Below are positions 1 to 17,348 of a DNA stretch of 64,000 bases, piece after piece. The DNA comes from Naegleria gruberi (taxonomy: Eukaryota). Position 1 is the stretch's first letter, and each line of letters begins with the position of its first letter. Below the pieces are notes generated by a model. It saw only the letters and a program-made list of their open reading frames with translations, searched no databases and was not told where the DNA came from. Where the stretch lies: assembly GCA_000004985.1 (NCBI GenBank), contig GG738892.1; one strand, given 5' to 3'. A program made the translations under genes and the position numbers.

Positions 1-1250
1 CTTCAAATCCACAATTTACTCCTTGTCCATAGAATGGAATAATTGCATGAGCTGTTAATATTGACAATGAATCGAATCGAATAGAATCGAATATTATTAA
101 ATTAACATGAAAATATATTGTAAAATAACTTACAAGAATCACCTAACAAGATTAGTTTGTTATCATAATGATGTGGATTACATTGAACATAACTCAATGA
201 ACTCGTTGGATTTCCATTCCAATCTTCCATAATATAAGATTTGACCATTTCATAGGCATCTGGGAATTGTTCACTAAAGAATTTACGAACATTGGTTTCC
301 TTCATTTCAGGAGTCAATTCATCATAACTCTTACAATCTCCCAATTCAACACTTTCGAATGAAGGTTGATTGCTACTGGCAATAGATTCATCCTCACCAT
401 AATCTCTCTTCTTGTATTGTCTCATAAAGAGAGTAACTGTGAAATCTCTAGTTGGATTTGGTAAGGCAATCAACATGAAATCACCACGTGGCCAAATATG
501 CAAACAATCTGAACGCATCACATAATCACCAGTTTGTGCATTTGGTCTAATTGACAATTCCTTATAAGCATGTGAAATATAGGTCTGAGAACTTGAAAAA
601 CGACAATTTGGATTATTTTGCATTTGTTGACGAACGAATGAATTCAATCCATCAGCTCCAATGATAAATTTACCAGTAACACTCTTCAATTCTCCCTCCT
701 TATTCTTAAAATGCAAAATAGAGACACTCTCATTGTCCATTTTAGCATATTCAATCCTTGTTGGAGTGGCCTCAAATTCCACCTGTAAAACATTTGCAAA
801 TTTCTTCTCCAATTCTTCCAATAAAAAACAATTCAAGTGATGTCTGCCAACACTCACAATGTATTCATCAGGAGAAATGCCATACGGTTGAAATCCAACT
901 CGTGAGGTCTTTCCAAATTGATCCTCAAGAGAATCACTCTTCAAATCCTTCATGTGAATGCCACGACCTTTCATTTTCAATCCAACACTTTCGTCCTTGA
1001 AATGTTTAACAAATTCTTGATCAATTCCTCCCAAGGCTTTAAAAGCACGATGACTAATAGCCAAATTAATAGAACGTCCTTCATATTTATGGCTTCTATA
1101 ATCCTGTCTCTTGTCAATCAAGACAACTTTTTGTCCGTGATGTTGTGCCATATACAAAGCTGCCATACAGCCAACAAGACCTGCTCCATTGATGATGATT
1201 GGTAAATCTTGATAATTTGATGAAGAGGTATCAGTGAGTGGTGGTGCCAT
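1..1250 (-). CDS. Kynurenine 3-monooxygenase-like FAD-dependent monooxygenase. The gene is partial and its 3' end runs off the window start. Exons are 134..1250 and 1..51, with an 82-nt intron at 52..133.
   Basis: N-terminal Rossmann motif IINGAGLVGCMAALYMA. GRSINLAISHRAFKALGG matches the KMO GRSINLALSxRG motif. The large ORF ends at LLGDS at a GTAAGT donor, and after an AACAG acceptor the frame continues SHAIIPFYGQGVNCGFE, matching the KMO [20 protein letters not shown] region. The start ATG is preceded by an A-run. Confidence 0.75.
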
Positions 1251-1482
1251 TTTTTTTTAAATTATTTGTGTTTGGTTGACTTGATGGAATTTTTGTTTAT
1301 TTATGGTGTTATTTTGATTGAATGGAAAATTGATTGTAATTATCAGATCAGTTTGGATTTTGGGAAGAGAATGAGGAATGGATGATGATGAGAAGTAGCA
1401 GCAGAGAAGTAAATAGTTTAGAATAAAAAATTCACATTTCTCAGCTATTTATATGAAAAGAGAATATGATATAAAAAGGATT

Positions 1483-1554
1483 CTCCCATGCCGGGAATTG
1501 AACCCGGACCTCCTGGGTGAAAGCCAGGTATCCTAGCCATTGGACTACACGGGA
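1483..1554 (-). tRNA. tRNA-Glu (anticodon UUC), 72 nt.
   Basis: The reverse complement folds as a cloverleaf. The acceptor stem TCCCGTG/CATGGGA is 7 bp with one G-U pair. The D arm is GTCCAATGGCTAGGAT. The anticodon stem is CCTGG/CCAGG with loop CTTTCAC. The T arm is CCGGGTTCAATTCCCGG and the discriminator is G. It closely resembles eukaryotic cytosolic tRNA-Glu(TTC). Confidence 0.85.
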
Positions 1555-1813
1555 ATCTTGTTAACTTTTTCAATTGATTAATTATGAATTTTCTTCCACA
1601 CAGATTCTTTTTGGAAACGGATAAAGGAATTTTTGTAATGGACTATTTAAATATTGTAATCATTTTAACAAATGTCAAGGCTTACATGTAACATTTCGAG
1701 ATTTTTACTTTGGAAATCTTCCATCACAGATTCTTCACAAAATAAAATATCTTCAAAAAAAACAACTAAACCGCCACTTTCGAATAAAATCAATTATTTG
1801 AAAAAAGGACGAA

Positions 1814-2700
1814 ATGATGAGAACAGTGCAAAAACCAGTATTGTTCATTGTTATATTGATGGTTTGCATCATGACATGTTTAACGAAACAAGCCGAAAGT
1901 AAAGTTTCGTTAAAGATTGAAAAAGTTTCGTCTACTTTATCCGTAATTCCAAAGGACGATACCATTTCCCAGATCATGTGTGGTATGGTCGTTGGTATTG
2001 CTCAACAAGTAAGTACTTTTTCCTTTCCCACTAATTCGCTTATACGAAACTTGAATTTATTAGAAACTAGTCAAGGAAAAGAAATCAATGGACGAAACCG
2101 AACAAGATTTGATCAAATTCTGCTCACTTTCTTCATTCAGTAAGAATGTAACCATGATGAATATGTGTCATGACATGGCGCTGTCATTTGTCCCACACGT
2201 GATTAGTGAAATCTTGATTGCACATCAAGAACCACTTGCCATCTGTCAAAGACAAAAACGTGGTATTGAATATGCTCTTACTCGTGTTAGAGAACAAAAT
2301 CAGACAATTGTTTGTAATATTTGTCAATTACTGGTCTATGAAGTTGGTAAGTTGACCAAAAAATTGTAATTTTCATTGTAACCTTGATCCAAATGTAGAA
2401 CTTTTTATTGCACAAAACGAATCTCTGAATCAATTAGCATACAAATTAGATGAAGTTTGCTCAACAGTCCCAGAAACCTATCAAGGATTATGTGTCTACA
2501 CTGTCGAACAATATTTACCAAGTTTCATCAAAATGGTGGAATCTGAACTCTCTCCAATTTCTTCATGTAGAATGATTGGGTACTGCCCAACAACTGATAA
2601 TTTGAGTAAATTCAAACCAATTCTGAAAAATAATACAGTGCAGAAGAAGGAATATCATGGATGTGGAAAGAGAAGATTGGAAAAACAAATTCTTAATTGA
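1814..2700 (+). CDS. Secreted saposin-like (SapB domain) protein with 3 exons. Exons are 1814..2008, 2064..2346 and 2399..2700, with introns at 2009..2063 and 2347..2398.
   Basis: Hydrophobic signal peptide PVLFIVILMVCIMTCL. Cys spacing and the VCxxVPxxxxGLCxxxVxQYLP..I..C..IGYC pattern are typical of saposin B type domains. Donors are GTAAGT and acceptors TTATTAG and AATGTAG, and the frame is kept across both junctions. Confidence 0.6.
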
Positions 2701-8591: not shown

Positions 8592-11292
8592 ATGTCTCAA
8601 CACGAACGATTTAATTTCGATAATTCGGAGGAGGATGATTTAGAATTGATGGAAAATCTTCCTCGTGATGATGAAGATGAAGATGAAACTCTACAAACAA
8701 CAAGAAGAACAAGAATACAAAACGAAGTAAATTATAACTATAACAATAGAAAGAAGGGAATTTCTCAAACTCTAATTCAACCCGTGCTCGGATTATTGTA
8801 CAGAAAACTCATGCTCTTGAAACGCGATTGGAAAAATTCAATCATGATGATCATGTTTCCCTTGCTATTTATTGTATTAATTATATTGAGTCATATATCG
8901 TATAGACAATTATTTAAGAATTCAATGAATCCGTATGAGGCTGGAACGGAAGAGTATTACAAATGGATGGCTGATAATTCGCCTGTTTTCTTGTTGGGTC
9001 AGATGGGTAAACCAAGTAAGGCTGCTTTAATGAGTGATTTTTCGACAATACCAACTGAGAAGGAAAAAACATTTTGCATGGCTATGGTTGCGAATGGCCA
9101 ATTGTTGAAGGATAAGAATGGTAAAAAATTAATGCAAACCATTGAGAGAAGGTTGACTAATTTCATGTCTTTTTATGTGGATTTTAGAACTTTTTCAAGT
9201 ATGATGGAAATGGAAGAGGCAATGAAGAGTTCATCTGAAACTGACTATTATTTTGGAGGATATATTTTCCATCAATTGGATTTTGATTCTATGGATTTTA
9301 ATGTTACTGTCATGTATAAGAATTCAGATATGGCCACTTTGCCAACTCTTTCTCAATTGGTTCAACAAACTATTTTGGATATAGCCAGTGCTCCAAAGCA
9401 GTATAACGAAACAAGATTGGAATCTATTTTCCCATCAATTGGTATCCAATCGATTGCGTTTGGAGATCCAATATCATTGTTATTTTTGGAAAATACTATT
9501 TATTATTTGGTTATTCCAATGGTATTTATTCTTCCTCAAATAGTTTCAAATATTGTTGCTGAGGAGGAAAAGGAAACCAAGGTTCAACTCTTACTCAGCT
9601 CTGTATCAAAGAAAATGTACTGGTTCTCACATATTGTTTTTGATTCCACCCTACTGTTAATTATTTCTCTCATACAAATAATTGGAGGTACATTCATAGC
9701 ACAAGCGAAGGCATTCACAGATAATTCACCATTTGCTTATCTTTCTCTCTATTTATTTTATTCAATTTATTTCTTGACCTTTGCTTACATGTTCAGTTAC
9801 TTTTTCAAGAAGGTTGAAGATTCTCAAAGTGAGTTTTATTAACATTAATTTATTTACGATAATAATTTAAGAATGGTCTGGTTTTATTGTATCACTGACA
9901 GTAGTATTTACTTTCCTTGTATTCAAATTTTTATTTGGATACGAGACTAGTATGGCACTCAAGATTTTCTTGTGCTTTGTCATTCCTGGTTGGAATCTTT
10001 TTTACGGACTTTCAATTTTAGGACTTGCTGCTTATAATGGAACACCAATTTCATTCCTTGACATTATTTTATTTAGAAATCATGGATCTGAGATGTCTGT
10101 ATTATTGATTGTTATTATCATTTCGAGTCTTTTGAATGTTTTTGTAATGCTATCTCTTGAATACTTTGAATATTTGAAGAGAAAGCCAAATTCTTGGATT
10201 AACAGAATTATTCCTTCCTTTATTAGAAGAAAGGTACAAATGGACACTAACGAATTACCAGTTAGTGAAGTTGAACTCCAAGAAATGATTGAAAAATACT
10301 CTAATGCAGACGAAATCTTTGGTGAGAGTGAAGAGGAATCATTGGGAGGATATTCTCTCCTTGTGGAAAACGTTTTCAAATGGTATGGTGACTATTGCGC
10401 TCTTAAATCGGTCAATTTAGGGGTAAGGAAAGGAGAAATTTTTGGCTTGCTTGGTAAGAATGGTAGCTCAAAAACAACCCTATTGAAATGTATTTGTGGA
10501 TTGTCTGGAATTAGTAGAGGAAAAATATCAATTAATGGTACAAGCGTTTTTGAGAATTTCTCTGCAGAACATAGTTTGGGTGTCTGTCCTCAAAATAATA
10601 GATTGTATGAGAATTTAACAGTGTGGGAACATTTAAAGACCTATCATTTAATTCGTGGAACCTATTCCTTTGCAAATGTAACCCAATGCTTGAATACTTA
10701 CAAATTTGCTCCAGAAGATGCCAACAAAACTGTAAAGGAATTATCAGGAGGTATGAAACGTAAATTATCAGTTGCTTTGGCATTCATTGGTTCTGCTAAT
10801 TTGATTCTTCTCGACGAGCCTACATCATCTCTGGATGTTGCTACCAGAAGAGTTATTTGGTCAATTATCAAACAAATGCAAGAAAGTCACTCTATCATTC
10901 TAACTTCTCACTCTATGGAGGAAACAGAACATTTATGTAATAGAATTGGTATTATTGTTGAAGGTAAGATGGCAACAATTGGAACAAAGAATGCTCTCAA
11001 AGACAAGTATGGAAAATTCTACAAGGTCGTTATTACCAACTATGATGAAGACAATGTGGAAAGAACAAACGACTTTGTGAGAAATACTTTTGGAGAAGAG
11101 AATGTTCGCTTATTGAATCAAGTTGGAAGAACTCAAACTTTCGAAGTGTCTAACTCCATACCAATCTATGAAATCTTTGGAGAAATTAATTCACATTTGG
11201 ATGAGTATGGAATTGAAGATTATTCTGTCAGTAACACAACATTAGAGCAAGTATTTTTGAACTTTTCAAATGTTGGAGTTGTGAAAAACTAG
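8592..11292 (+). CDS. ABC transporter, ABCA-type half transporter (TMD-NBD). Exons are 8592..9828 and 9872..11292, with a 43-nt intron at 9829..9871.
   Basis: N-terminal TM, a large loop and then multiple TMs in the ABCA topology. Walker A GLLGKNGSSKTT. ABCA-type signature LSGGMKRKLSVA. Walker B ILLDEPTSSLD. The intron has a GTGAGT donor and TTTAAG acceptor and the phase-1 junction keeps the frame (DSQ-K-WSGF). Confidence 0.8.
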
Positions 11293-14200
11293 ATTAATTC
11301 CTGTTTTATTTCCATTAACGATTGCAAATTGTTGAATGACTGCATTTTAGAGTAGAGAATAGGACATTCGAGAGATAGGCATTTTTGCTCCATGGAAAAG
11401 CTAGAGTTTGGCAGTAAACCATTTGTCATATCCAGACTATGATTACAATATCTACAGAGTTCTTTTAGCTCGTTTAAACGCTTCTCTGTTGCTCTCCTTC
11501 TTAATAATAAAATAAGAGGATAACTATTGCAATCAGAACATAATAAATCTACGGTAACATCCTTCTTTGAGCTGTCAATAATCTTTCCACAACTTGAGCA
11601 AGGCCTACTCAAAGGTTGGAAGTATTGTTCAATAAAGTTTTTAGACTTTCTAAATACTTGCTTTCTCCAATCAGCCAACAAGTAAATATCCTTCTTTGGT
11701 AAATTAGTGTACCAAATATTACAATTTACAAAACTAAGCGAAAATAATCTGTCTATTGAGGGAAGTAACTGTCTTGTAATATAATAATTGTAATGAATTC
11801 GGTATTTTTGTTTGTAATTTTGAACTTGATTCATTCTGTCCTCGATGAAATATTTGGGGTGAATGACCATGTCTGAGAGTTTGGCTTTAGCTGGATTCAG
11901 TGAACTAAAAACAACTACATAGGGAACTCTTTCATTAAATCTTGGCTCTGCTCTTGGATCACGTTGCATTTCTCTGACTGCAATTCTTGCAGATGGTGGA
12001 AGATGTCTCTCCGACTTGTAATAACCCAATTTGACCTTTTTCCAGAATATGAAATCTTGCAACGAGCACTTTTCTGAAATTATTCTATAGAATTGCCTTG
12101 ATAAATATGCTTTCACTCTGGAAAAGTCCAATGATTCGAATAATATTTCCAAACTCTTTTCCATTAAAGATCTTACCATTAAACAATTATCTCTTCTGAC
12201 AGCCTCTATGCCTTTACAAAAGAGTGTTCCTTTAGTTTGTGCTGGGCTCTCATATGCCATCCCTACATATCTCTTCTTACTCACCAAATATGACGGATGG
12301 AATACTCTTTCCATTTGTAAAGTAATTGGTCTTGGATTTGCATTGGTAACGTGCTTGACAATTTCCTTTCCAAGTTTGAATGCTTCCTCTCGAGTTGAAT
12401 TTATACATTCCACAAATAAAGAGTCAGTATCTCCGTAAGCAATTCTACACTTGCCTGGAAATTTTTCATTTACAATATCAATGGCATTCTCGAGAGTAGC
12501 TCTAGCCAGTTGCACAATAGCATCTGCAAGATCAGAGAGTGGCATTCTACCAGAAAAATTTGCACTGGTATAACCATAGGTAACGTTGGCAATCAGTTTC
12601 AAACCAAGCTGTCTTGCATTTAAAATTCTTTGAGTTTCTTTATCATCCTTGCTAGTTTCCTTCATAGCTTGTTTAACCATAATTCTAGTATTCAAAATTT
12701 CAGAGCACATTCTTGGTAGAACACCTTGTCTTACGTTTGGCTTGACAAATAGGCATTGATTAGGCGTTATGAAAATGTCCTCTTCTATTGAATCCGATCC
12801 TGTTCTATCCTGGAGTAACTTCCTCAACTCGTTATTAGGTTCATAGTTTTCCAGAGTTCCTAGCTTTGTTTTCTTCCTATCCACAAATGCCAACTTTCCA
12901 AGACATGTACTGTAGCACAAATTATAGGCAATTATAATGGATGGATAAAGTGATTGAAAGTCCAAGACAATCATTGGATTGGTGTAGAGTTTGCTTTGGG
13001 GCTCCATAACCAGTGGCAAGCATTCAATGGCTGCTTGTTCCATAACTTGTTTTCTTGTTGGGGAAAGAGCAACATAATTCCTCAATCTGGCCAATCTCAA
13101 CATCATGCTCTCCACTCTGTACTGACTTCCTCTACTTATAACAGAAAAGAACTCAATTCCATAAACCTTTCCCAACTCTCCCGTTCTATTCAAAATATCC
13201 AAATGGTTTAGTACCTCGAGGGTCACACTCGTTTTAATCAGATAATATTGAAGAATAACCCTGTACTCAAAACTATCTTTTTCGTGTGAGCATGAGTGTG
13301 AAAGATCGGTGAGAGTTTGATGTGAATAGAATGGAATTCTCCTTCCCAAAACATTAAAAACCACATTGTGAAGGGTATACATGTCCAGTTTAAGCTCTCC
13401 ATTCATAATTCTCCATACATTCATAACGACTCTTCCTTTAATCATCACTCCAGACTGTTTGTTTCTTGCGTATTCCTGTGCCTTCTTTAAGGCCTTTTCT
13501 CTTTGGAAGTTATTGGAGGTGTTGGTGGCCTTTTTCTTATCAACTTTTGGTTTATCACTTTGAAAATTGGCAACTCTAGAAATTTCAAAGCAAACATTTC
13601 TTCCCATCACGAGAAATCCTCTTTCTATGAGATAACCCAATCCTTCAGTTTGAATTTCATAACCCAATAAAATATCTGGGTCGACCTTACAAAGTACATC
13701 AATAAATCCTTCATACAGGTCTTTTTCATTTTTAAATTCTATAACTCTATCAAAATGTGTTGGGAAAGCAAGAGGTCTCTGAGCAGCATCATCTGCTTCC
13801 ATTTCTCTATTGACAAGTAGCCAATGCTCCAAACTCTCAGCAATATTCGCACAATTCTGGTAAGTGATTACTATTGTTTGAACTGAGTCATAGAGTGGAT
13901 TAGGTAGAAACGTTGCTCTCGTTAAAACGTGACATTCAATACACATGACTGATAGGTTTTGCTTGGACACCAAATCTTTCTTTTTCTTATTATCTCTAGG
14001 TATTGCTGCCTCGTCGAAAGCAATCTTTTTTCTCTCACTCATAACAGATAATTCTGACAAGAGGGATTGATATTCTGGAGCTCTATTCCTGAGAGTATTA
14101 GGTGTGTTATTCAGGGAGAGTAATTTCCTAGCTGTGAGTGAGGAAGCAACATCCAATATTGGTTCGTCATACTGTGGAGATAGTGGTCTGTGTATTTCTT

Positions 14201-17200
14201 CGATATCGGCTATTACTGGCTTTTTCTCTTGAGATAACTCTTCATAAACCATCGATAATGAAGGTGGTTTGGGAGCAAAATCTAGAATAAGCTTTCCAAA
14301 CTTTTTGTGAACAGGTCTTTCAATAGGATTTAGTTTTGATTTGAAATTTAGAAACGGTAATTCCTTATAATCTTTGCTCTTGGGCATTTCTTCGTTCAAT
14401 TTTTTCTTTCCAAATATCGAAGAAAATCTAATTAGACTACTTCTTTTGCTTTCCAAATAATCGTCATGTGAACTAAAAAATGGATAATTTTCCATTTGCC
14501 TTATCAATCCTTTATAAGCAATAGCTGACTCATGCAGTTCATTCTCCAATGCTTCAATAGAGGGTGGTTCCTTAAAGTCCAAAATTAGGTTTCCGCTTCT
14601 TACCACCGAAGAAGAATCTGTTTCATTTAAAGTTACAACAATTGGAGATGTTTCGTTGGAGATTGTTGTAATTGCTGATGGTTCGAACTTTTCCGAAGGT
14701 GGTGAAATGTCAATCATTGGAGGTGTTAGTTCCACATTGAAAACCTTTTCCAAGAACTCTTCTTCCTCTTGTTGTACTTCAGGTTGTTCCTCTTCTGCAA
14801 TGGTAGGTATGATAATTGGTGATTGGAAGGGAGAATTAACTTGTTTAGCAATATTAGATGCCAAAGGAGGGCTAGTCTCAGTAGGCTCCTCTTGTATTAT
14901 TGGAGGAGTAGGTTGAATCGATGAAGAGGAACTCGAGTTTGCTGCAAAATTAAACCTATCTGGATCAAAGCTTTCCAAAGCTTGTTCCATCATGAGTGTT
15001 GAGACTGTAATATCTTCAGAAGGTTTATCTTGGGGCAGATGCTTTGCTTGACTAAAGAAATTGTCAAAAAAGAAATTATCATTGGTAGATTGAGGTGTGA
15101 CTTCTGTTTCACTTGGCTGCTCTTCGTCTGCGAAGGATATTTTTCGTTTCTTTGCTGGCAGTAGAACTTTCCTTTCATAGTTTTGCAAAATTTGTTTTGA
15201 TTCTGATGACAGAGGTTTGTATTCATCTTTCCTTACTGAATATTCAAATCTGCAAAAGAAGGTATCCTCATTGTGGTCAGTGAACTCCTCGGGAAGACTT
15301 GTCTGGTCATACAGGGAGCTTGGCATTTGCACATTTGGTGGCATATTCCTAAAGTAATCGTCTACCACCAAAACTTTGCATTTCCCAACAACAGTTTCGA
15401 AGGGATTGGTATCAGATTGTGAAATTAGGAAAATTTCACTTACTCCTGTCCAATCTCGAGCTCCAGTTTTAGTTTCTTCTGGTCTGTAGAACCACCTGAC
15501 TTGTATTGTCTTTTTTTCGTTATTCTTATCAAGAATACATGCAATATAAGGTTTAGAGTTTTTAGGAGCTCTCATATAGACAAAATCTCCAATATTTACA
15601 GATTCAATGGTGATACGCTTGTTTTGCTTTCTTGATTTAGTTTCAGGATGCGTACCATCAAACTGAGGAATAAATTCAACAACATCCTCACCCTCACTAT
15701 CAGATGATACATTCCACTCTTCATCTGAAACTTGTTCTTCCTCTTCATCGACGTGGAATATTTGTTCGTTACCAGAGAAAACTTCCTTCATTGAGTTGAG
15801 CATTTCTTGCTCGTCTTGAATCAGGGAATCTTCACTCTCCTCCTCTTCATTATCTTCTTCATCCTCTTGGTAATCTCCCAAATTATTATATTCATCCTCC
15901 TTCAATTCAAAATCCTTGTCTCTCATCCAATTCAATACATTTTCCAACTCTAAATCTCCCTGTGTTAGTTGAATATTAAAAAGTGCATTACCTTGCCCAA
16001 AGTATGAGTTGTCTCGAGAGGCTAGATAAATTTCTTTAATTTCTTCATAGGTCTGAAAGGCTGTTGGAAATTTTGAAAGGAAATCATTCAGCTCTTGTTG
16101 TGATTTTTTGAGATTTGAGTCTTGTTGCTGTGGAGTTGCCGATTTTTGACTGAAAGCTTTTGGTAGTTGACTTGTCAGAATTAGAGATTCATTTTCTTGC
16201 TCAACCTGATGTTTTGCATCATAGTTATCATCTCTATTCATATTTTCAACTATTTTCATCAAATTGTCATACATGTATCCTTCCAATTCATTTTGTGGTC
16301 TTTTTTCTTGCCTCTCAAAGGGTGAACATGGAATGAATGGTTGAGAAGCCTTCTCCAAAGATCGCCTTCTTCTCCTTTCTTCTTCCCAAATAACATTAAG
16401 AGATCGAATCAATTTTCTTTCCTTTCCAAAAGACTCTTCCTTTTCATCCTCTAACGAAAGTTGCAAATCCACAATATCTTTTCTATTCATTACATCCCTC
16501 GAAAAGGCGTCCATTTCAATTTCACATTTAGACAATCGTTTGACATTATCTGGAAGAATGGTACCGTATTGAATGGCATTCTGACTTGAAATTTTGTCAG
16601 CAGCCATATCATCCCGAAACGAATTGAATGGTAAACGAAAGTACAACTTTTCCACACTCAAATCACCCATACCATACAAATTATAGTCCATCATAAATTG
16701 AAGAGGGAATGGGATATGTGCTTCGTAGACTGAAAAACGATGACCCATCACAGTTCCATTCCCAAACATGGCTGCCATCTTTCCAACATGACTCGGATTG
16801 TACACATAAACCTTTAGAAATAACTTGTGATTGAACCAATAACCATAAAATGGTTTTCCAGAAACTAGTACAATATCATGAACAAATTGTCTCGGGTGAA
16901 TGTGAAATGAAGGCTGTTGTTGTGGATTATTCTTCAATGTCCTTTCGTATTGATTGAGAGTGTGTCCAAAAAGAGATTGATGAAAGGTATCTTCAATACT
17001 TGCTCCCAAAACTGAAATGAATTGATTAACTTTTTTCATGTCCATATTTTGATAAATGCTTGTTAAATCATCACTATCATCATTATTACTACTATTAATA
17101 TTACTATTATTTTGATTAGAATTTGATGAAAATAATTCATGAGGAAACGACAACATAAAGTACGGATACAATTGATGAACATGAAGACAAGCCTTTTGTT

Positions 17201-17348
17201 TTGTTTCCTGCACTGTGCCATACACGTGCATAATTGGCACTAAATCTATTTGTCTATTTGCAAAAAACCAACACTTCCTATCATCAAATAACGCCTGTGG
17301 AGTACACATCGAATACTCGAGCGATAGAATTTGAATATTGACGACCAT
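11289..17348 (-). CDS. REV3: DNA polymerase zeta catalytic subunit (REV3), 2019 aa. It has an embedded BAH domain.
   Basis: Rev3-type N-terminal domain (MxxxIQIL..CTP), a long low-complexity insert, and a B-family polymerase core with motifs SLYPSII, YGDTDSLFV and KKRY. The C-terminus has CysA (CSSCGK..CSDC) and CysB (CRYC..C..C) metal-binding modules. Residues around NIGDFVYMR...RWFYRPEET...EIFLISQSD...GKCKV look like a BAH domain. Confidence 0.9.
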   Translation of the reverse strand: MVVNIQILSLEYSMCTPQALFDDRKCWFFANRQIDLVPIMHVYGTVQETKQKACLHVHQLYPYFMLSFPHELFSSNSNQNNSNINSSNNDDSDDLTSIYQNMDMKKVNQFISVLGASIEDTFHQSLFGHTLNQYERTLKNNPQQQPSFHIHPRQFVHDIVLVSGKPFYGYWFNHKLFLKVYVYNPSHVGKMAAMFGNGTVMGHRFSVYEAHIPFPLQFMMDYNLYGMGDLSVEKLYFRLPFNSFRDDMAADKISSQNAIQYGTILPDNVKRLSKCEIEMDAFSRDVMNRKDIVDLQLSLEDEKEESFGKERKLIRSLNVIWEEERRRRRSLEKASQPFIPCSPFERQEKRPQNELEGYMYDNLMKIVENMNRDDNYDAKHQVEQENESLILTSQLPKAFSQKSATPQQQDSNLKKSQQELNDFLSKFPTAFQTYEEIKEIYLASRDNSYFGQGNALFNIQLTQGDLELENVLNWMRDKDFELKEDEYNNLGDYQEDEEDNEEEESEDSLIQDEQEMLNSMKEVFSGNEQIFHVDEEEEQVSDEEWNVSSDSEGEDVVEFIPQFDGTHPETKSRKQNKRITIESVNIGDFVYMRAPKNSKPYIACILDKNNEKKTIQVRWFYRPEETKTGARDWTGVSEIFLISQSDTNPFETVVGKCKVLVVDDYFRNMPPNVQMPSSLYDQTSLPEEFTDHNEDTFFCRFEYSVRKDEYKPLSSESKQILQNYERKVLLPAKKRKISFADEEQPSETEVTPQSTNDNFFFDNFFSQAKHLPQDKPSEDITVSTLMMEQALESFDPDRFNFAANSSSSSSIQPTPPIIQEEPTETSPPLASNIAKQVNSPFQSPIIIPTIAEEEQPEVQQEEEEFLEKVFNVELTPPMIDISPPSEKFEPSAITTISNETSPIVVTLNETDSSSVVRSGNLILDFKEPPSIEALENELHESAIAYKGLIRQMENYPFFSSHDDYLESKRSSLIRFSSIFGKKKLNEEMPKSKDYKELPFLNFKSKLNPIERPVHKKFGKLILDFAPKPPSLSMVYEELSQEKKPVIADIEEIHRPLSPQYDEPILDVASSLTARKLLSLNNTPNTLRNRAPEYQSLLSELSVMSERKKIAFDEAAIPRDNKKKKDLVSKQNLSVMCIECHVLTRATFLPNPLYDSVQTIVITYQNCANIAESLEHWLLVNREMEADDAAQRPLAFPTHFDRVIEFKNEKDLYEGFIDVLCKVDPDILLGYEIQTEGLGYLIERGFLVMGRNVCFEISRVANFQSDKPKVDKKKATNTSNNFQREKALKKAQEYARNKQSGVMIKGRVVMNVWRIMNGELKLDMYTLHNVVFNVLGRRIPFYSHQTLTDLSHSCSHEKDSFEYRVILQYYLIKTSVTLEVLNHLDILNRTGELGKVYGIEFFSVISRGSQYRVESMMLRLARLRNYVALSPTRKQVMEQAAIECLPLVMEPQSKLYTNPMIVLDFQSLYPSIIIAYNLCYSTCLGKLAFVDRKKTKLGTLENYEPNNELRKLLQDRTGSDSIEEDIFITPNQCLFVKPNVRQGVLPRMCSEILNTRIMVKQAMKETSKDDKETQRILNARQLGLKLIANVTYGYTSANFSGRMPLSDLADAIVQLARATLENAIDIVNEKFPGKCRIAYGDTDSLFVECINSTREEAFKLGKEIVKHVTNANPRPITLQMERVFHPSYLVSKKRYVGMAYESPAQTKGTLFCKGIEAVRRDNCLMVRSLMEKSLEILFESLDFSRVKAYLSRQFYRIISEKCSLQDFIFWKKVKLGYYKSERHLPPSARIAVREMQRDPRAEPRFNERVPYVVVFSSLNPAKAKLSDMVIHPKYFIEDRMNQVQNYKQKYRIHYNYYITRQLLPSIDRLFSLSFVNCNIWYTNLPKKDIYLLADWRKQVFRKSKNFIEQYFQPLSRPCSSCGKIIDSSKKDVTVDLLCSDCNSYPLILLLRRRATEKRLNELKELCRYCNHSLDMTNGLLPNSSFSMEQKCLSLECPILYSKMQSFNNLQSLMEIKQELI

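Follow-up and report, generated by a model that had tools for sequence, protein, structure and literature searches.

A bromo-adjacent homology domain in REV3, the catalytic subunit of DNA polymerase zeta, of Naegleria gruberi and its relatives

The catalytic subunit of DNA polymerase zeta (Pol zeta), REV3, carries a bromo-adjacent homology (BAH) domain in Naegleria gruberi. The gene lies on the minus strand at positions 11289-17348 of a 64,000-nucleotide stretch of contig GG738892.1 (assembly GCA_000004985.1), which was analyzed as a whole and is here referred to as the window. What is new is a canonical Pol zeta catalytic subunit with an acquired chromatin-reader domain in one protist lineage. 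Databases already annotate the entries of both Naegleria species, N. gruberi and N. lovaniensis, automatically with the BAH family (PF01426); a full-text literature search found no report of REV3 or Pol zeta with a BAH domain, and a paper on the evolution of the Rev3-Rev7 interaction mentions neither BAH nor Naegleria (PMC9926120). We argue that the domain is functional, belongs to the EBS/SHL/BAHCC1 class and, on balance, probably acts as a histone methyl-lysine reader that tethers the polymerase to heterochromatin. The routing of translesion polymerases to particular chromatin environments is poorly understood, and for Pol zeta the sole direct connection to chromatin on record is the contact between REV3L and HP1, which is specific to vertebrates (PMC8561639).

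Sequence and predicted fold of the BAH domain

The gene is a single intronless open reading frame (ORF) of 2019 amino acids plus stop, with no internal stop codon. Across the 1980 amino acids of the N. gruberi database entry P0001 ('ATREV3; DNA binding protein-like protein') the identity is 100%, and the closest further homologs of the ORF are all Pol zeta catalytic subunits. Judged by these matches and by its Pfam domains (Table 1), the ORF is N. gruberi REV3, with polymerase motifs A (DFQSLYPS), B (KLIANVTYGY) and C (YGDTDS) all intact. The exonuclease of REV3 is inactive, and loss of the catalytic aspartate at ExoI is expected.

The PF01426 profile matches residues 583-713, between the POL3_N and exonuclease domains of a protein with the full REV3 domain set, with an E-value of 1.3e-17 and a score of 64.2 bits against a gathering cutoff of 30.8, and the match covers profile positions 2-120 of 121. 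An excised segment of 177 residues scored 66.7 bits on its own. Comparison with the sequences in PDB using phmmer ranked SHL first (3.7e-13), followed by PBRM1 (6.7e-13), EBS (2e-11) and BAHCC1 (1.6e-09), after which came ASI1 and AIPP3 (7.7e-07 for the latter), with ORC1 far below (0.008).

The AlphaFold2 model of residues 566-735, computed from an input alignment of 80 sequences, has a mean predicted local distance difference test (pLDDT) score of 87.8, mostly >90 within the BAH domain, and a predicted template modeling (pTM) score of 0.80. It is chiefly beta, with seven strands of at least 3 residues and a loop of lower confidence at about residues 667-695, before the last strands. Every top Foldseek match in PDB was a BAH domain (best E-value 9e-12), led by EBS (5z8n and 5z8l, E about 1e-11), SHL (5znp and 5znr), PBRM1 BAH1, BAHCC1 and AIPP3; the SHL complex with H3 trimethylated at lysine 27 (H3K27me3) superimposed with a root mean square deviation of 2.3 Å across 130 columns. 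MET1/DNMT1, ORC1 (4dov, 4dow), TNRC18, Rsc2 and ASH1L followed lower down. The profile match goes far beyond chance, and the sequence matches in PDB and the predicted fold support it independently. Residues 583-713 are confirmed as a real BAH domain, modeled with the distorted beta-barrel typical of that fold.

A preliminary description of the window, made from the sequence, had placed a BAH domain in the REV3 insert at roughly 15350-15650 and had proposed a Pfam search and a structure prediction for it. The placement holds, since the quoted peptide (NIGDFVY...VVDDYF) corresponds to residues 585-666 at window positions 15351-15596, and both analyses bear the assignment out.

Conservation between Naegleria species

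The REV3 protein of N. lovaniensis (P0002, 2002 amino acids, also a single ORF) has the BAH domain at the same place. No gaps interrupt the alignment of the two domains, whose identity ranges over 47-62% in windows of 40 residues (57% by tblastn); the linker downstream, by comparison, aligns with gaps at 20-40% identity. The nonsynonymous divergence (pN) was 0.25 for the BAH domain and 0.20 for its core, to be set beside 0.20 for the N-terminal domain, 0.21 for the exonuclease domain, 0.10 for the polymerase domain and 0.31-0.46 for the linkers. The synonymous divergence (pS) of 0.71-0.87 is saturated, and we therefore rely on the pN values and gap patterns instead of giving dN/dS ratios. These patterns indicate that the BAH segment is translated and constrained, with a slow rate of change similar to that of the N-terminal and exonuclease domains of REV3. 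Synteny was uninformative in this comparison, as REV3 has different neighboring genes in N. lovaniensis and in the N. gruberi window.

Distribution and origin of the insertion

The preliminary description had named as the alternative that the segment is an ordinary part of the REV3 insert, and had suggested a comparison with related species. Among the 120 best REV3 homologs, Pfam assigned PF01426 only to the proteins of N. gruberi and N. lovaniensis and to none of the other 118. With the BAH segment as query, an exhaustive phmmer search of 1.84 billion representative proteins, a library clustered at 50% identity in which close relatives such as N. fowleri are hidden, gave 198 matches at E <= 1e-3. 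Among the 150 of these that were listed, the only proteins with REV3 domains were those of N. gruberi, Willaertia magna and two environmental sequences, P0138 (Logan run SRR32315890, locus L003) and P0141 (Joint Genome Institute metagenome 3300062347, locus L002); the remaining listed matches were EBS/SHL-like BAH-PHD, polybromo-like and BAHCC1/TNRC18-like proteins. The Willaertia REV3 (P0121, P0270) has its BAH domain at residues 567-702, 44% identical to that of N. gruberi (E 6e-27). The same insertion is thus found in five REV3 proteins, those of N. gruberi, N. lovaniensis, W. magna, P0138 and P0141, referred to below as the five BAH-bearing REV3s. In all five, the domain begins about 20 to 100 residues after a short motif, IPQxDG.

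We also scanned metagenomes with an alignment of the N-terminal domain and the BAH domain. In this way 41 further REV3 loci were recovered. A BAH match was absent from all of them (0/41), even from the 8 that extend from the N-terminal domain through the polymerase. Homolog searches with a word index are not counted as evidence here, the BAH-segment query having missed even its own protein and the combined query of N-terminal domain and BAH having yielded only REV3 fragments that lack BAH and one BAH protein unrelated to REV3.

To relate these proteins, a neighbor-joining tree was inferred from 718 columns of the exonuclease and polymerase core in 32 taxa. In it, the five BAH-bearing REV3s formed a clade with a bootstrap value of 0.84, and Naegleria and Willaertia grouped with a value of 1.0; this tree is crude, includes no BAH-less discobid REV3 and is the basis for the taxonomic placement of P0138 and P0141. 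In reciprocal phmmer searches, the best non-self matches of the P0138 and P0141 BAH domains were Naegleria REV3 BAH domains, within a set that had itself been chosen by similarity to the N. gruberi BAH domain. The sequences point to a single insertion in the ancestor of Naegleria, Willaertia and the two environmental relatives as the most likely origin.

The two Willaertia proteins are encoded on different contigs and measure 2075 and 2134 amino acids. Several indels aside they hardly differ, and so represent either alleles, recent duplicates or alternative models of one gene. The P0141 gene contains an in-frame intron of 48 nt inside the BAH domain (L002:7958-8005, GTATGT...TACTAAT...AG), read-through of which adds 16 spurious residues, and a second intron of 51 nt (L002:10286-10336, GTAATT...TACTAAC...CAG) that splits the polymerase into two gene calls. 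Both introns have a strong TACTAAC-like branch point.

Predicted ligand-binding residues

The closest sequence match in PDB, SHL, holds the side chain of H3K27me3 in a cage of Tyr41, Trp63 and Tyr65; in addition, Met31 contacts H3A25, His88 and Asp90 contact H3S28, His88 stacks on H3P30, and Arg32, Gln92 and Asp95 contact the peptide backbone (PMC6013494). Each of the substitutions Y41A, W63A, Y65A, H88A and D90A eliminates binding of H3K27me3 (PMC6013494). AIPP3 and BAHCC1 bind likewise, and AIPP3 mutants of such residues lose H3K27me3 (PMC7718874; reviewed in PMC13068663). The cage together with the histidine and the aspartate has been proposed as the signature of H3K27me3-reading BAH domains (PMC7718874), the histidine, which forms a hydrogen bond to H3S28 and stacks on H3P30, being His88 in SHL and His198 in AIPP3.

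We read the equivalent residues of the REV3 domains from alignments and codons. The cage positions (Table 1) are aromatic in 5/5 of the BAH-bearing REV3s: Trp619 is invariant both in these and in the alignment of 80 BAH sequences, and Tyr621 is replaced by Phe in P0141. Arg593 (SHL Arg32), Asp646 (SHL Asp90) and Asn648 (at the position of SHL Gln92) are invariant in the five, and Met592 (SHL Met31) is Leu in the other four. The position of SHL His88 is variable, with Gln644 in N. gruberi, His in N. lovaniensis and Willaertia, Cys in P0138 and, after excision of the 48-nt intron, Thr in P0141. An EBS/SHL/BAHCC1-type methyl-lysine cage in the REV3 BAH domain is well supported by these alignments.

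In the wider group of such readers (EBS, SHL, AIPP3, BAHCC1 and BAHD1), the Tyr/Trp/Tyr cage, the Asp and the Met/Arg pair that contacts H3A25 and the backbone are all shared with REV3, as is a C-terminal FFCRFEY strand. Those readers are small BAH-PHD or BAH-only chromatin repressors, whereas the REV3 domain is part of an enzyme of DNA synthesis, and it differs from theirs in the Gln that N. gruberi has at the H3P30-stacking His and in an extra loop of about 30 residues (667-695).

Weighing the proposed methyl-lysine reader

Several observations weigh against a methyl-lysine reader that targets heterochromatin. The histidine of the proposed H3K27me3-reader signature (PMC7718874) is a glutamine, Gln644, in N. 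gruberi. TNRC18, which reads trimethylated lysine 9 of H3 (H3K9me3), also carries H-x-D, and since it does, H-x-D does not fix the mark. The tree on which the lineage is drawn has the shortcomings given above. PBRM1 BAH1 is almost as close in sequence as SHL, and it prefers H3 and H4 tails without modification and disfavors H3K27me3 (PMC10425938). A classification of the domain as a bona fide H3K27me3 reader was dropped on account of the glutamine at the diagnostic histidine and the H-x-D shared by TNRC18.

The closeness of PBRM1 also suggests a different function, in which the domain would bind unmodified H3/H4 tails or the nucleosome surface in the manner of PBRM1 BAH1 or Rsc2 and would provide a general affinity for nucleosomes instead of targeting to heterochromatin. 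PBRM1 BAH1 is the second-best sequence match in PDB and among the top Foldseek matches, it and the BAH domains of yeast Rsc1/Rsc2 share the WFYRP.ET core with REV3, and it prefers unmodified tails despite a comparable cage of H976/W997/Y999 (PMC10425938); moreover, the specificity histidine is not kept across the five REV3 domains. The residues themselves argue the other way. In the REV3 domains the Tyr/Trp/Tyr(Phe) cage known from proven methyl-lysine readers is complete, but PBRM1, a subunit of a chromatin remodeler, has His at the first position; the REV3 domains also keep the Asp that is Asn in PBRM1; and their top matches in both sequence and structure are EBS and SHL. We regard general nucleosome affinity as unlikely.

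Still less probable is that the domain docks a non-histone partner, such as a replication, translesion synthesis or silencing factor or a methylated protein, in the way that the Orc1 BAH domain binds Sir1, and thereby regulates the assembly or activity of Pol zeta. BAH domains are reported to bind non-histone proteins too (reviewed in PMC13068663), and in REV3 the domain adjoins candidate REV7-binding motifs and the conserved SSLIRFSSIFGKK motif. However, the set of residues conserved across the five REV3 BAH domains (cage, Met/Arg, Asp and Asn) is exactly that of the histone-peptide contacts in SHL, and BAH domains of the ORC1 type are much more distant.

The imperfect 5' end of the public N. 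gruberi gene model notwithstanding, it is scarcely credible that the domain is an annotation or assembly artefact (two fused genes or an unspliced intron, both largely refuted) or a decaying relic, given a frame open across 2019 codons, the recurrence of the in-frame REV3-BAH arrangement in four further genomes or contigs that were assembled independently, a gap-free BAH region in which synonymous change strongly outweighs nonsynonymous change, and a cage in which Tyr601 and Trp619 are invariant and Tyr621 is aromatic in the five BAH-bearing REV3s.

Proposed role in chromatin recruitment

A methyl-lysine reader would find its candidate marks in this organism: an E(z) ortholog is known from N. 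gruberi (PMC9018016), and its heterochromatin is marked by H3K27me3 and H3K9me3 (PMC12344493). From the conserved residues we infer that the REV3 BAH domain would bind histone tails, that the mark would be one of these two, and that the contact would serve to recruit the polymerase to chromatin. The domain was inserted right after IPQxDG into the disordered linker that separates the N-terminal domain of REV3 from its REV7-binding and polymerase portion. In the mechanism we propose, Tyr601, Trp619 and Tyr621 would hold a trimethyl-lysine in an ARKS context, that is H3K27me3 or possibly H3K9me3, and Asp646 and its neighbors would hold the backbone of the histone peptide. This contact would tether, retain or concentrate Pol zeta on heterochromatic nucleosomes. 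Assembly of the enzyme presumably still runs through the C-terminal zinc-finger domain and the pair of candidate REV7-binding motifs. At stalled forks or gaps in silent, compact and repeat-rich DNA, Pol zeta would then bypass lesions or fill gaps.

The nearest precedent is found in the same protein family. In mouse and human, REV3L reaches pericentromeric heterochromatin through a PxVxL motif (residues 800-804, in the large insert) that binds an HP1 dimer; it lies near H3K9me3, H3K27me3 and H4K20me3 and is needed for normal replication of heterochromatin (PMC8561639). According to the authors of that study, the PxVxL region is well conserved among vertebrates but missing from the genomes of invertebrates and fungi (PMC8561639). 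A regular-expression scan of the inserts of N. gruberi, N. lovaniensis and Willaertia found no conserved P.V.[LMV]. The two systems share the protein family, the inter-domain insert and the proposed outcome, namely Pol zeta at repressive heterochromatin. They differ in that vertebrate REV3L is linked indirectly, from a short motif via HP1 to H3K9me3, whereas the Naegleria protein has a folded, putative reader domain built in. The Naegleria BAH domain and the vertebrate PxVxL-HP1 contact are independent inventions. That Pol zeta of Naegleria and its relatives is directly recruited to H3K27me3/H3K9me3 heterochromatin, as a convergent solution to that of vertebrate REV3L and HP1, is a tentative proposal that the sequences allow us to make. 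The preliminary description had seen in the domain a novel way of recruiting the polymerase; this stands for the built-in reader, while chromatin targeting of Pol zeta as such was already known from vertebrate REV3L (PMC8561639).

Among replication factors, the nearest conceptual analog is ORC1, a replication protein that likewise uses a BAH cage for methylated nucleosomes, in its case reading H4K20me2. It differs from REV3 in its marginal sequence similarity, in its cage and mark, and in the location of the domain, which is N-terminal in ORC1 and embedded in REV3. In other respects the N. gruberi protein resembles the canonical REV3/REV3L of yeast, plants and animals, with which it shares the N-terminal domain, the inactive exonuclease-like domain, the B-family motifs, the C-terminal zinc finger, which in Pol zeta is the Cys-rich domain for binding Pol31/Pol32-type subunits, and the IPQxDG motif. 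It also has two candidate REV7-binding motifs, and the BAH domain sets it apart from the 118 other REV3s compared.

If the proposal is true, a coupling between Pol zeta and repressive chromatin would have arisen at least two times, and the replication or repair of silent chromatin would be a recurrent, possibly ancient, core task of this polymerase. Mutagenic synthesis in these amoebae could then be biased to silenced DNA of transposable-element or viral origin. The lineage is deep-branching and has PRC2 and heterochromatin with H3K27me3, H3K9me3 and 5-methylcytosine, and it would offer a compact testable system of one domain, three cage residues and published chromatin immunoprecipitation maps in the same strain. 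A DNA polymerase is a new type of host protein for the EBS/SHL/BAHCC1 class of BAH readers, and the natural His/Gln difference between the sister Naegleria species could inform what sets mark specificity.

Linker motifs around the BAH domain

The Q, D and G of the IPQxDG motif are invariant in the five BAH-bearing REV3s. IPQ[LFV]DG also occurs in REV3 proteins of plants, chytrids, mucoromycetes, fishes and insects, where low-complexity sequence comes next. IPQxDG thus has the look of a short linear motif that is widespread in REV3. Directly upstream of IPQFDG and the BAH domain lies an acidic tract (15669-15911, residues 480-560) with 42% Asp and Glu and 2% Lys and Arg, and acidic sequence is present at the matching place in the other four BAH-bearing REV3s. 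That the tract could contact histones is pure conjecture. The basic patch that directly follows the BAH domain, KKRKISF, may act as a nuclear localization signal (NLS).

Further downstream are two PP-containing motifs about 100 residues apart, which by eye fit the yeast Rev7-binding-motif consensus Phi-psi-y-x-x-pP-n-y-x-x-Phi (PMC9926120) and have readable counterparts in the other four sequences. These motifs, LILDFKEPPS and LILDFAPKPPS, are probably two REV7 docking sites. Between them lies the strongly conserved motif SSLIRFSSIFGKK (14403-14441, residues 970-982), which N. lovaniensis and Willaertia share almost unchanged and which is recognizable (RFRGL...) in both environmental homologs.

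Gene model and other features of the window

The coordinates of the REV3 features are collected in Table 1.

Table 1. Domains, motifs and predicted ligand-binding residues of N. gruberi REV3, with positions in the window
Feature	Window positions	Residues	Strand	Basis and remarks
REV3_N (PF24065)	17175..17339	4-58	-	Pfam, 32.7 bits; aligns with N. lovaniensis and other BAH-bearing REV3s
POL3_N (PF24055)	16785..17030	107-188	-	Pfam, 47.4 bits
IPQFDG motif	15654..15671	560-565	-	REV3 landmark, 17 residues upstream of BAH
BAH (PF01426)	15210..15602	583-713	-	Pfam, AlphaFold2, Foldseek; includes lower-confidence loop at about residues 667-695
Tyr601 (TAT)	15546..15548		-	Equivalent to SHL Tyr41, cage; invariant in all five BAH-bearing REV3s
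Trp619-Phe620-Tyr621	15486..15494		-	W619 equivalent to SHL Trp63 and Y621 to SHL Tyr65, both cage
Gln644-Ser645-Asp646 (CAA, TCT, GAT)	15411..15419		-	At SHL His88-Tyr89-Asp90, which reads H3S28 and H3P30
KKRKISF, basic NLS-like patch	15132..15152	733-739	-	Directly after BAH; KKRKVSF in N. lovaniensis, KKKKVSF in Willaertia
LILDFKEPPS, candidate REV7-binding motif 1	14559..14588	921-930	-	By-eye fit to yeast consensus
LILDFAPKPPS, candidate REV7-binding motif 2	14259..14291	1020-1030	-	By-eye fit to yeast consensus
Exonuclease-like domain, DNA_pol_B_exo1 (PF03104)	13362..13985	1122-1329	-	Pfam; CIE, not DIE, at the ExoI position
DNA_pol_B (PF00136)	11739..13151	1400-1870	-	Pfam, 308 bits; DFQSLYPS, KLIANVTYGY, YGDTDS
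zf-C4pol, C-terminal C4 zinc-finger/Fe-S (PF14260)	11346..11600	1917-2001	-	Pfam, 31.3 bits against a cutoff of 28.9

The public model P0001 begins at Met40 of the ORF, and 39 in-frame codons precede it (MVVNIQILSLEYSMCTPQALFDDRKCWFFANRQIDLVPI, window 17229-17348). Because these codons match Pfam REV3_N and the N-terminus of the N. lovaniensis protein, the longer ORF of 2019 residues is the better model, and the annotated N. gruberi protein appears from this comparison to be N-terminally truncated. A sub-threshold Pfam match to an Egalitarian winged-helix in the linker (16054-16188, residues 387-432; 19.9 bits against a cutoff of 27) is probably due to chance.

A convergent ORF on the plus strand (9952-11292) meets REV3 at 11289-11292, where the stop codons of the two genes overlap inside the palindrome CTAG; therefore, their 3' untranslated regions must overlap completely. 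This ORF has ABC-transporter ATPase-like sequence motifs.

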